A stretch of 37,471 bases of DNA from Thelocarpon superellum (Eukaryota). The notes beneath the pieces were generated by a model. That model was not told the origin of the DNA. It saw only the letters and a list, made by a program, of their open reading frames with translations, and did no database searches. This document shows, in pieces, positions 9,689-14,496 of the stretch (the stretch's first letter is position 1; every line of letters starts with the position of its first letter). A program made the translations under genes and the position numbers. Location of the stretch: positions 62,001 to 99,471 of the forward strand of contig JAPEUG010000011.1 of NCBI GenBank assembly GCA_026025795.1. Reading direction: 5' to 3'.

Positions 9689-11491
9689 ATGGCGGTCTGC
9701 AACACCACGCTCGAAGAGCAATACAGTGCGTTCCGCACGTCCAGCTCAACGTGAAGTCTGATGCTGACCCTACGTTCTAGTCAATGAGATCCCCTGGTCC
9801 CATGGCATGACCTTTCATCATATCGGCTTGATCGTGTCCGCCTTCTTCGCCGCCTTCGCAACGGTGCTGTCATCATATCTGATCTTCATGCATGCTACAC
9901 ATTACTCCAAACCATACATACAGAAACAGTGAGTGACCGTCGACCCCGCTCCTTATGGATGGACCCATGCTAAGCCATCTTGGTCGAATAGCATCATTCG
10001 CCTGCTCTTCATCGTCCCCATCTACTCCGTCGTCTCTTTCCTCTCATATCTCTACTATCGGCATGCCGTTTATTTTGAAGTCTTGATGGGCTGCTATGAG
10101 GCCTTTGCCATCGCCAGCTTCTTCACGCTTCTGTGCCACTACATTGCGCCCAACCTGCATTCCCAGAAGGAATACTTCCGCGGCATCAAGCCGAAGAAAT
10201 GGGTCATCCCGCTTCCCTGGTTCCAAAAATGCACCGGCGGCGAGCACGGATTTCTGCGAACGCCAAGGAGCGGTCTGACCTGGTTCAATGTAAGCTCTCC
10301 CTACCCGGTGGAGGGGATGTGGAAAGTCTCACCGATGTATGTGTGAGATAGGTCGTCTTCCTGGGCGTCTTTCAATACTGCTTCATCCGCGTCTTGATGA
10401 CCTTCGTCGCCACGATCTCGCAGGCAACCGGTCGATACTGCGAGGCGTCCCTTAGCCCGGCCTTTGCGCACGTCTGGGTAAGGCTCTAACGTGGGCGGCA
10501 CCACGCTGAGAGCTGCATGGCTAAGCGTCGTTAGGTCTTGGTCTTTGAGGCGGTGGCCGTGACCGTGGCAATGTACTGCCTGATCCAGTTCTACATCCAG
10601 ACCAAGGAAGACCTTGCCCCCTTCAAGCCTTTGCTCAAGGTCATTTGCATCAAGCTGGTCATCTTCTTCTCCTTTTGGCAAACGGTAGGCAACCACGCTC
10701 TCGGCGCAGGGAACCCGGGGCTGATCAGACCCATGCAGCTGCTCGTGTCCATCCTCACGTCGACGCATATCCTCACTCCCTCGGACAAGATCAATTACTC
10801 CGACTACAAAGTCGGCATCCCGGCCATGATGCTATGTGTCGAGATGGCCATCTTCGCTGTCATGCACATGTTCGCTTTTTCGTGGCGGGAGTTCCGTGTG
10901 TCAGAGGTGTCGGCGTATTATGAGGGCAACACGAGCTACCAGGGCGGGTTCCTCGGCTGGCATGCGTTGCTGGATGCATACAATCTGTGGGATATTGTCA
11001 AGGCTGTGGGCCGAAGCTTCCGCTGGCTGTTCGTCGGCCGCCGAAGCCGGCTCGACGACGTGAGCTACAAGAATACACCGGGCGATCTCAGCCTGGAGCC
11101 GACGCGGAACCAGACCGAGTACGCTGGCGCCGGGGCGGGGAGTTATGCTCCGGGGACCGAGGGCTCCTCGTCCAAGCCGGGGGCCTACCAAGCCCTTCAC
11201 GATGACGATACCGATGACATCTACCACCGAGGCCAATATGGCGGACCGGGGCCGCGACCCAGCATGGCAGGCGGGCGCATGGCGTCGGCTGATGTCGGCG
11301 ACCAGGGTGGACCTCAGCGGTGGGAGGCGAATGGCCAGGCCAACCCGGACCACCTCACGGCCGCTCATCCTGGACCTGGAACGGTCAATCACGGCTCCTC
11401 TCAGGCACCACCTAGCTACCCAGGACCTACTCAGCCGCCAGGGCCATCGCAGGCCATGCACTGGAACACGGGTGGTGGACCGCCCGTGTAG
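9689..11491 (+). CDS. TMEM184/OST-alpha (DUF300) family multi-pass membrane protein, ~503 aa, 6 exons
   Basis: Exons 9689-9725, 9781-9928, 9992-10289, 10352-10477, 10535-10684 and 10739-11491 total 1512 nt in frame. Motifs HATHYSKPYIQKHIIRLLFIVPIYS, CYEAFAIASFF, RTPRSGLTWFN, IKLVIFFSFWQ and LCVEMAIFAVMHMFAF. Confidence 0.9.
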
Positions 11492-12613
11492 CATCTCCAC
11501 ATCGACTAGCATTTTGCACGGGTTCCTTTTCCCCACAGCTGCTCCAGTGTCTGGGATAGACGAGAGCGTTTACGAATTTGCAATCCACCATGCGTGACCA
11601 GAATCCTCTGGTCTGTTCTGGCTTGGAAGGAGGTTTGTCAACGGCGATAAGAGGCGGACGACGCAGCACATCCCCATTTGTGGAAAGGGGTATGATGTCT
11701 TCATATGAGGGTGTATCGAGTAGTTGGCGTAAACCTCGTGGTGGTCGGGGGCGGAGTATTCTTTTTGGAAAATCCAGAATCTGAATGATCACGTTTGAAA
11801 TCTGGGCAAGATCGAACCTCGAGGAGCAAGTAGACGTCAGACCAGGGCCTAGCACAGTTGAGTAGGCATCATATATTCCTGAAGATCTAAGAAGTCGCTG
11901 GCGGCGATGACCAATTACGTATGAGTCCGCGGGGCATTTGGACGTGAACAGGCCGGTTGAACTAGCCACCAGAAATCCCAGAAGCGAGAAGTTTGCCCCC
12001 TTCCTTCTCCATACCGGTCCCCCTCTCGCACACCCCACCCCTCTCCCTGCCCTCGCACACATGTGGTAAAACGGACGTATGTGTATGAGACTTCTTAGCC
12101 AGGTCGTTAACGTATTCGTCGAAGGTGGAGGCGAGGGCGGGGCACCACGTACGAAGTACGACAGCCATCGAACCCTACCCGTACCACGACGCCCTGACCC
12201 GGATACGGGGTGGTGGCGGCGGCGCGGTGCGCGAATGGCACGAGACACGAGTCGCCGCTAAAATCCGTGGAGGATCGCGCCCCAATTTCGGCGACTGCCA
12301 GTCGAGCCCGCCAACCCCACTACTGGTATGACTAGTATATTATCACCACCCACTACTTCGAGAGAATACTGCTCAACAACAAATTTATCTTGCCTCGCCT
12401 CCTCCCCGAGCAGGCCAATCCAGAAACGACAGACGCCAACGAGACGCCATCTTTGCACCGGGCAGATTCGATCGCCCTACGCAAGTCTCTGCTCGACCAA
12501 TTCTTTGAATCTGACGCCGTATCGGAACAAAGACCTGCTGCAACACCCTCTCACCGCCTCCACTCGTGCATCACGCCCCCCCTCTCTCGGGCAGTAAGGG
12601 AACCGTAGCGCTG

Positions 12614-12882
12614 ATGAGAGATTCGCCCACCGTCTATACTTCCCAGGTACTTGAGATGCCTCTTCCCACCCTCTCGTGGCACGGGCTAGCGTCCGATGGC
12701 CGTCCTTCCTTGGACCTGGTCCCCCGCGGTCTTTTCCTCGATGGCACGCTGACGCTCAACCTAGGACTACATTTCAGGTAACTGGCGTGCCGTCGACCAA
12801 TCGATCCATCACCATCACCATCACCATGATCTCTGACCATGATGGATGTATAGATCACCTGTGGAAGGCCTCGGTAAATTAA
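12614..12882 (+). CDS. Arginine attenuator peptide (AAP) uORF, 24 aa, 3 exons
   Basis: Exons 12614-12646 (MRDSPTVYTSQ), 12765-12777 (GACTACATTTCAG) and 12854-12882 give MRDSPTVYTSQDYISDHLWKASVN*. It aligns without gaps to N. crassa arg-2 AAP as I recall it (MNGRPSVFTSQDYLSDHLWRALNA). Both introns are GT...CTGAC...TAG. The stop lies 31 nt before the CPA1 ATG. Confidence 0.95.
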
Positions 12883-12913
12883 GCTCGACCACGTTCCCGC
12901 CAACTCTCTCAAC

Positions 12914-14496
12914 ATGTTCAAGCATATCCCCAGCCTGACGGTATTGCGACCCCCTGCCCGGGCCGCGCTGAGCTCGAAGCCGCGCCACCACGTACGAAGC
13001 CTAGCCACTGTGGAGGTCACAACACCTCGACAGATGCCCGCCAGACGAACGCGAGCCACGCCGGCTGCTGATGACCGGGCGACGTTCACGATAAGGGTAT
13101 GCCCCCTTCGGGAGGACGGCAGATGATGATATCTTCACTAGGTGCTGACTCGTGGCTGGTAGGATGGTCCCGTCTTCCATGGCCGCTCCTTCGGCGCCCG
13201 GAACAACATCTCGGGCGAGGCGGTCTTCACCACGTCCCTAGTCGGCTACCCGGAATCCTTGACCGACCCATCGTACCGCGGACAGATCTTGGTATTTACG
13301 CAGCCACTGATCGGCAACTATGGCGTGCCCTCTTCGGCCAAGGATGAGTTCGGACTGCTCAAGTACTTTGAGTCGCCCACCATCCAAGCGGTCGGAGTGG
13401 TCGTGGCCGATGTGGCGGAGCAGTACAGCCACTGGACGGCGGTGGAAAGCCTGAGCGACTGGTGTGCCCGAGAAGGCGTGCCTGCCATCTCGGGCGTGGA
13501 TACACGCGCCATCGTGACGTACCTGCGGGAACAGGGATCGTCGCTGGCTCGCATCACCATCGGCGAGGAGTACGATGCCGATCAAGACGAGGCCTTTGTG
13601 GACCCCGAGCAGATCAATCTCGTCCGCAAGGTCAGCACCAAGGCGCCCTTCCATGTCAATTCTCCCTCCGGGGATCTCCACGTGGCTGTCATCGACTGCG
13701 GCGTCAAGGAAAACATCTTGCGGAGCCTCGTGGGGCGTGGCGCCAGCGTCACGGCGTTCCCCTATGACTACCCCATTCACAAGGTGGCCCACCATTTTGA
13801 TGGGATCTTCATGTCAGTGCTTGTACCCGCCGTGATCGATGGTCTTCCCGCTGACGATATCCAGCTCGAATGGGCCCGGTGACCCGACGCATTGTCAAGA
13901 CACGGTGTATCACTTGCGCAAGTTGATGGGATCCTCCCAAGTGCCCATCATGGGCATCTGCCTTGGTCACCAACTGCTCGCGCTTGCGACGGGTGCGCGT
14001 ACGATCAAGCTGAAATATGGCAATCGGGCCCACAACATCCCTGCGCTGGATCTCACGACGGGACGATGCCACATCACGTCGCAGAACCATGGATACGCCG
14101 TGGATGCCGCGACGCTGTCGAACGAATGGAAGGAGTATTTCGTGAACCTGAACGATTCCAGCAACGAGGGTCCGTATCTCTAGCCCTGTCATCCCTATCG
14201 CCCATCGTGACTGACCCCCACCAGGCCTCATCCACAAGTCTCGCCCGATCTTCTCCACGCAGTTCCACCCCGAAGCCAAGGGCGGGCCACAGGACTCGTC
14301 ATACCTCTTCGACTCCTACCTGGACAGCGTGCGCAAGTACAAGCGATCGCAAGCCGTGTTCCAGCCCCAGCGCGACAGCCGGCCCAGCCCCTTACTGGTC
14401 GACCTCCTGGCTAAGGACCGCGTAGGCGTCCAGCCGCCTTCGCTGGCCAGCCAGCCCCTGACTCCTGCGTCTGCCACCGCCGCCGTGGCCGCTTAA
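12914..14496 (+). CDS. CPA1: Carbamoyl-phosphate synthase arginine-specific small chain, mitochondrial precursor, 469 aa, 4 exons
   Basis: Exons 12914-13096, 13163-13812, 13865-14169 and 14225-14496. Motifs [41 protein letters not shown] (catalytic Cys), SQNHGYAVD and QFHPEA. Arg-rich, acid-poor N-terminal presequence. Orthologue of arg-2. Confidence 0.97.

Follow-up and report, generated by a model that had tools for sequence, protein, structure and literature searches.

Feedback by arginine on CPA1/arg-2, exerted through a leader peptide that stalls the ribosome, belongs to textbook biology, and the locus described here adds one orthologue to it. The 24-residue arg-2 peptide is described in PMC7038982 as stalling ribosomes in response to arginine; by the same account the D12N change eliminates this response, and Asp-12 is in contact with uL4 inside the tunnel. 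The CPA1/arg-2 orthologues are presented, in PMC7049704, as regulated by the upstream open reading frame (uORF) for the arginine attenuator peptide (AAP) and as substrates of nonsense-mediated decay (NMD). A passage of PMC5487733 on Neurospora places ribosome footprints within the arg-2 uORF, and the same attenuation model is restated in extracts of PMC2075485, PMC5640933, PMC9604717 and PMC12230235.

The window, that is the whole stretch of 37,471 nucleotides from Thelocarpon superellum analysed here, carries a uORF split into three exons that is confirmed, by comparison with known and related peptides, as the AAP (Pfam PF08252 Leader_CPA1) of a CPA1/arg-2 orthologue. The feature is real, is correctly delineated, and is an ordinary orthologue of a textbook element. 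In the preferred reading, to which a probability of about 0.9 is assigned, the three exons would be spliced constitutively into a 24-codon uORF encoding the AAP of a filamentous-ascomycete CPA1/arg-2 gene.

The leader uORF and the CPA1 gene

The uORF lies on the forward strand, and its three exons (12614-12646, 12765-12777 and 12854-12882), joined by script from the letters of the window, gave 75 nt, namely 24 codons followed by TAA. The re-joining reproduced exactly every exon and intron coordinate, and the peptide, that the sequence-only reading had proposed. Exon 1 (12614-12646, 33 nt) starts with the ATG and ends with CAG, covering codons 1-11 with T-S-Q at the end. It is followed by intron 1 (12647-12764, 118 nt, phase 0, GTACTT...CTGAC...CTAG) and by the micro-exon of 13 nt (12765-12777), which holds the codons of D12, Y13, I14 and S15 together with the first base of D16. 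Intron 2 (12778-12853, 76 nt, phase 1, GTAACT...CTGAC...ATAG) contains a CATCAC repeat, located within 12806-12882, and chance ATGs. Exon 3 (12854-12882, 29 nt) provides the remainder of D16, the residues H-L-W-K-A-S-V-N and the TAA. A spacer of 31 nt (12883-12913) separates this stop, ending at 12882, from the CPA1 ATG at 12914, the same distance as had been stated from the sequence alone.

Each uORF intron presents one match to CTRAY, in both cases CTGAC (12749-12753 and 12833-12837), located 12 and 17 nt before the respective acceptor, and in the three coding-region introns of CPA1 the CTGAC is placed alike. The G usual at position +5 is missing from both uORF donors of the window (GTACTT and GTAACT). 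The micro-exon was further studied by means of a pattern composed of AG, a 13-nt exon coding D-Y-x-S plus G, and GT. On the forward strand of the window (37,471 bases) the pattern has a single occurrence, at 12765, and on the reverse strand none; the matches produced by chance are estimated at about 0.002 per window, and the occurrence at 12765 exceeds chance. Because two introns around a 13-nt exon cut the frame, the uORF is hidden from any scan for open reading frames and, as had been noticed, is absent from every list of them.

The gene downstream is the CPA1/arg-2 orthologue, encoding the small subunit of the arginine-specific carbamoyl-phosphate synthetase (12914-14496, forward strand, 469 aa). 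Its four exons (12914-13096, 13163-13812, 13865-14169 and 14225-14496) join into a coding sequence of 1410 nt with a single, terminal stop, and are separated by the coding-region introns J1 (13097-13162), J2 (13813-13864) and J3 (14170-14224). Exon 2 (13163-13812) contains PF00988, the small-chain domain of carbamoyl-phosphate synthetase, matched at 1.7e-44, and then the start of PF00117, the class-I amidotransferase domain. The neighbours are ordinary fungal genes: upstream, on the same strand, a Solute_trans_a gene ending near 11491, and downstream, past 14677 and on the other strand, an alpha/beta hydrolase, with Ysc84 and THO2 beyond. The gap of about 1.1 kb between the Solute_trans_a gene and the uORF leaves room for a promoter and a leader; no Gcn4/CPC1-type TGASTCA or TGACTC was found in 11500-12700. 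An ATG frame of 89 codons (12328-12597) stops 17 nt before the uORF ATG, and no ATG is present between 12329 and 12613; the frame would constitute a further uORF only if transcription started upstream of 12328. With a start downstream of that position, the AUG of the AAP would be the first one on the mRNA.

The identity of the peptide was approached through its orthologues. Searching the contiguous stretch that contains exon 3 alone gave PF08252 as the sole Pfam match (profile positions 16-22, E 0.065), with 13.1 bits, below the gathering cut-off of 18.5 bits; this score refers to the exon-3 stretch alone. Seven contiguous orthologous peptides reached 45.2-57.4 bits on the same profile, the lowest value being that of locus L010 (45.2) and the other six ranging from 45.7 to 57.4. 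The L010 peptide is identical to that of the window at 20 of 24 residues (1-2, 5-6 and 9-24), and matches a single PDB chain, 2xl1_A, ARGININE ATTENUATOR PEPTIDE, at E 2.9e-07. Compared by eye with 2xl1_A, the window peptide has 13 identities in the 19 residues displayed and 10 of 11 in positions 9-19. The proposal of an AAP uORF in front of a CPA1/arg-2 orthologue is upheld. An exact look-up of six contiguous orthologous AAPs in 15 billion predicted proteins found none of them, which fits the earlier expectation that automated annotation would probably miss this AAP.

The three-exon layout among related loci

Relatives were collected by scanning metagenome contigs with CPA1 exon 2; 285 stretches matched, 138 of these encode a relative, and the best 80 of the 138, which are 82-94% identical over that exon, were kept. 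In the 80 loci (402,870 nt) the micro-exon pattern was found 61 times on the gene strand, one per locus, and not once on the opposite strand. Loci with too little upstream sequence (L007, L008, L011, L013, L053 and L066) or beginning inside intron 2 (L045 and L054) were excluded, and six transcript-like ones (L003, L009, L010, L038, L040 and L064) were counted apart, leaving 66 informative genomic loci. Both intron positions and the 13-nt exon are identical in 63 of these, comprising the 61 loci with the canonical AG-13 nt-GT exon and two, L044 and L063, with a GC donor; the 63 loci are not independent and, grouped by peptide together with intron lengths, amount to 45 distinct types (46 counting the window). 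In all 63, codon 11 is followed directly by intron 1, and codon 16 is interrupted by intron 2 behind its first base; exon 1 measures 33 nt, ends in CAG or CAA and is followed by GT. Lengths are variable, from 55 to 334 nt for intron 1, from 48 to 152 nt for intron 2 and, among the 46 distinct loci, from 31 to 110 nt (median 57) for the spacer between the uORF stop and the main ATG. When the window was aligned with its four closest loci, conservation was confined to the start context, the three exons and the splice sites, the introns being unalignable. The division that the sequence-only reading had described is confirmed, the micro-exon coding D12-Y13-I14-S15, and the three-exon split is the ancestral layout of this fungal group rather than a device peculiar to Thelocarpon superellum.

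Three loci depart from this arrangement. L047 (2538-2750) and L048 have lost intron 2, so that the micro-exon is fused to exon 3, and their intron 1 is displaced by one base in the 3' direction, splitting codon 12 behind its first base. L076 (2590-2720) has no uORF intron; its contiguous uORF carries D16S and ends in C, and its CPA1 copy also lacks J2 and J3. This locus, which shares its contig-name prefix with L078, where the uORF is split normally, could be a processed (retro-copied) paralogue or represent an intron-poor lineage.

Six short contigs of mRNA size (1.7-2.1 kb) that reach the leader are intron-free; the uORF is contiguous in all six, and the coding-region introns present in their nearest genomic relatives are missing too. 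They are the contigs treated as transcript-like. No poly(A) was seen at their ends, and in principle they could come from intron-poor genomes instead. They begin 48-278 nt upstream of the AAP ATG. The contiguous uORF of L038 (61-135) equals the joined three exons of the genomic locus L016 (2324-2692) in 75 of 75 bases. It can be added that the CPA1 coding regions of L016 and L038 are only about 79% identical, which suggests that the uORF is conserved at synonymous sites as well. From these relatives we infer that both uORF introns of the window are probably spliced and that transcription probably starts upstream of the uORF.

Residue usage was counted in 35 distinct related peptides, gathered with search patterns in which Q11, Y13, S15 and W19, and the residue classes at 12 and 18, are preset. 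At each of positions 9-24 the window peptide carries the residue that prevails among these relatives, including D12 (34 of 35), K20 (34), A21 (28), S22 (25), V23 (21) and N24 (27). The retention of the key residues D12, Y13 and W19, claimed from the sequence alone, holds in the window peptide. The peptide had also been regarded as a variant on account of K20, the SVN end and the MRDSPT start. K20 and the SVN end are not special, each being the majority state among the relatives; in the start, D3 (in none of the 35) and S4 (in 3 of 35) are indeed unusual, and they are the only unusual residues of the peptide. The exact window peptide is absent among the 70 peptides derived from the relatives.

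Natural variants at residues commonly regarded as core occur in several relatives. D16A is found in L030 (2586-2690), the nearest relative by CPA1; H17Q in L012, L024, L025, L031-L033, L035 and L061; H17A, together with the GC donor, in L063 (774-870); D12E, also with a GC donor, in L044 (2553-2720); and S10R in L071, L072, L074 and L075.

Start contexts, predicted attenuation and splicing of the leader

The two start codons differ in their surroundings. The uORF ATG of the window is preceded by GCGCTG (12608-12613), a weak context with C at -3, and the CPA1 ATG by CTCAAC, with A at -3. Among the 46 distinct loci, position -3 of the uORF AUG is a pyrimidine in all 46 (C in 38, T in 8), and that of the main AUG is a purine in 45. 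A weak uORF start context accompanied by leaky scanning is a feature of the Neurospora arg-2 system, and C at -3 of the uORF against A at -3 of the main AUG would fit leaky scanning past the uORF. The six bases before the uORF ATG are conserved well beyond what a merely weak context would require. GCGC at -6 to -3 recurs across the majority of the 46 distinct loci and does not vary among the five aligned sequences, and a CACCG about 10 nt upstream is conserved as well.

By analogy with Neurospora and yeast, arginine would act on the CPA1 mRNA of Thelocarpon superellum as follows. Owing to the weak uORF AUG (C at -3), some scanning ribosomes would bypass it and initiate at the CPA1 AUG (A at -3), and in those that translate the uORF the nascent peptide would lie in the exit tunnel, its D12 close to uL4. 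When arginine is high, the peptide would arrest its ribosome on the stop codon of the uORF; this ribosome would block the scanning ones and reduce CPA1 synthesis, and the mRNA with the stalled uORF would become a target of NMD. Both stalling and NMD are thus predicted for this species from the mechanism established in Neurospora and yeast.

The sequence-only reading had further suggested that splicing of the leader could be a second control on arginine sensing, on the grounds that skipping of the micro-exon removes key residues and shifts the frame. The consequence of skipping was described accurately: D12-S15 are deleted and a frame of 18 codons results, which shares only the first 11 residues with the AAP and stops 5 nt before the normal stop. 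Two side observations touch on this question. The first is the persistence of the uORF introns. Presence of the coding-region introns was scored by the distances between conserved motifs, given that tblastn reads through short introns; J2 is present in 5 of the 80 loci, J3 in 39 of the 77 that could be scored, and 15 of the 56 micro-exon loci scored for J1 lack it, L020 among these 15 giving an inconsistent distance. The uORF introns thus outlast those of the coding region, for which preferential loss of 3' introns could be the explanation.

The second observation is a strong synonymous bias at codons 22-23 (12872-12877 in the window). In 32 distinct loci, the window and 31 relatives, the codon of Val23 is GTA in 15, GTG in 11, GTC in 6 and GTT in none. 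For comparison, valine codons of CPA1 exon 2 in the same loci are GTA in 6% and GTR in 25%, and Val7 of the same uORF is encoded by GTC in 15, GTT in 5 and GTA in 1. The bias at codon 23 has a binomial p of about 5e-11, a value that ignores the relatedness of the loci. Ser22 is encoded by TCA in 21 of the 32, and Ser10 never is. Followed by A, a GTA or GTG at codon 23 creates TAA or TGA in the +1 (micro-exon-skipped) frame, and this is the stop located 5 nt before that of the uORF. The possibility that GTRAAY at codons 23-24 serves as an alternative donor, by which the AAP would be spliced in frame onto CPA1 exon 2, was considered and rejected; GTA or GTG is kept in L021, L029, L036, L046 and L071, which lack that coding-region intron. 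It might be speculated that leaders with the micro-exon skipped, or spliced in part, are frequent enough to be of consequence, that the rare GTA/GTG at codon 23 (with TCA at 22) is kept for the sake of the stop in the skipped frame, and that the persistence of the introns reflects a role of splicing; this we consider unlikely. If it were true, the stop would prevent the uORF of a mis-spliced or skipped leader from overlapping and silencing CPA1, and the persistence of the uORF introns would reflect splicing that sets the share of arginine-sensitive mRNA. Intron persistence and codon bias are modest side observations, and the counts on which they are based ignore the relatedness of the loci.

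A regulated splicing of the leader, in which the micro-exon is skipped or intron 1 or 2 is retained to give an arginine-blind uORF and an altered response of CPA1, can be weighed against these data. Alternative splicing in fungi consists mostly of intron retention, with less exon skipping, and retention would be the likelier of the two forms here. Such regulation could exploit the loss of D12-S15 and the frameshift caused by skipping. It would also agree with the persistence of the uORF introns in 63 of 66 loci, much above that of the coding-region introns, with the donor after the micro-exon, which has a full consensus (GTATGT, GTACGT or GTAAGT) in 1 of 46 loci against 31 of 46 for intron 1, and with the GTA or GTG at codon 23 in 26 of 32 distinct loci, giving TAA or TGA in the skipped frame. 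However, the micro-exon is included in all six transcript-like contigs, with no skipped or retained form among them, a point of little weight inasmuch as assemblies keep the main isoform only; and beyond the splice signals the introns cannot be aligned even among the closest relatives. Survival of 5' introns is expected anyway from the 3' bias of intron loss, which favours them. Moreover, the early stop is not general: the skipped frame ends before the main ATG in 34 of 47 distinct loci and runs over it in the remaining 13. L047/L048 and L076, which have no separate micro-exon, still have GTG as codon 23. Splicing as a second arginine control is unsupported, and regulation of this kind is judged very unlikely. 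Retention of intron 2 would add uORFs starting at the ATGs at 12826, 12839, 12842 and 12846, none of which is conserved in the closest relatives.

It is scarcely credible that the leader remains unspliced, with transcription starting inside intron 1 or 2 and the contiguous 18-codon frame at 12826-12882 as the real uORF. This frame is open, starts with an ATG, contains I-S-D-H followed by the exon-3 residues, ends in DHLWKASVN like the AAP and needs no splicing. It was rejected because the T-S-Q-D-Y part is missing and because its ATG and I-S-D-H belong to an unconserved part of the intron that the four closest relatives do not have. Conservation across 63 loci covers exon 1 and the micro-exon together with the splice sites of both, and the transcript-like contigs begin 48-278 nt ahead of the AAP start codon.

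Comparison with known systems

The value of the locus for annotation lies in showing that a functional, deeply conserved uORF can escape scans for open reading frames. The conserved 13-nt exon between AG and GT offers a handy marker of the AAP in fungal genomes, and the persistence of the uORF introns and the synonymous bias at codons 22-23 could interest students of the element. A full-text literature search, in a collection without the likeliest papers on intron positions, did not find introns or a micro-exon in the AAP uORF, or alternative splicing of the leader. Both the cDNA and the genomic sequence of arg-2 have been available for a long time, and for this reason the three-exon layout is taken as known.

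The uORF of Saccharomyces cerevisiae CPA1 has K after W, as the window does, and is contiguous, with no introns. It belongs to the same family and occupies the same position and, according to PMC7049704, shows arginine-dependent stalling and NMD alike. The proteins encoded downstream differ: that of yeast is cytosolic, whereas the CPA1 of the window seems to carry an N-terminal extension of basic character, as is usual for mitochondrial presequences. A more distant likeness is offered by uORF2 of hCMV gp48 and the uORF of AdoMetDC, where, as with the AAP, a short peptide arrests the ribosome that is making it, at termination or close to it, and obstructs scanning, according to PMC7038982 and PMC2075485; these have unrelated sequences, effectors and genes, and no family relationship with the AAP.

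The closest described system is the AAP of Neurospora crassa arg-2 (PDB 2xl1 chain A), likewise of 24 residues and located in the leader of the gene for the small subunit of the arginine-specific carbamoyl-phosphate synthetase. Both peptides have D12, Y13, D16, H17 and W19. At 14 the window peptide has I for L, at 20 K for R and at 8 Y for F, and residues 2-4 and 6 and the tail differ as well; with the exception of D3, all these differences are within the variation of the relatives. Among these, the peptide of L065 is identical to 2xl1 at 18 of the 19 residues displayed, as counted by eye, and its uORF is interrupted by the same two introns around a 13-nt exon. Hence, with a peptide nearly identical to that of Neurospora encoded in the split form, a Neurospora-type gene very probably has the three-exon layout found in Thelocarpon superellum.
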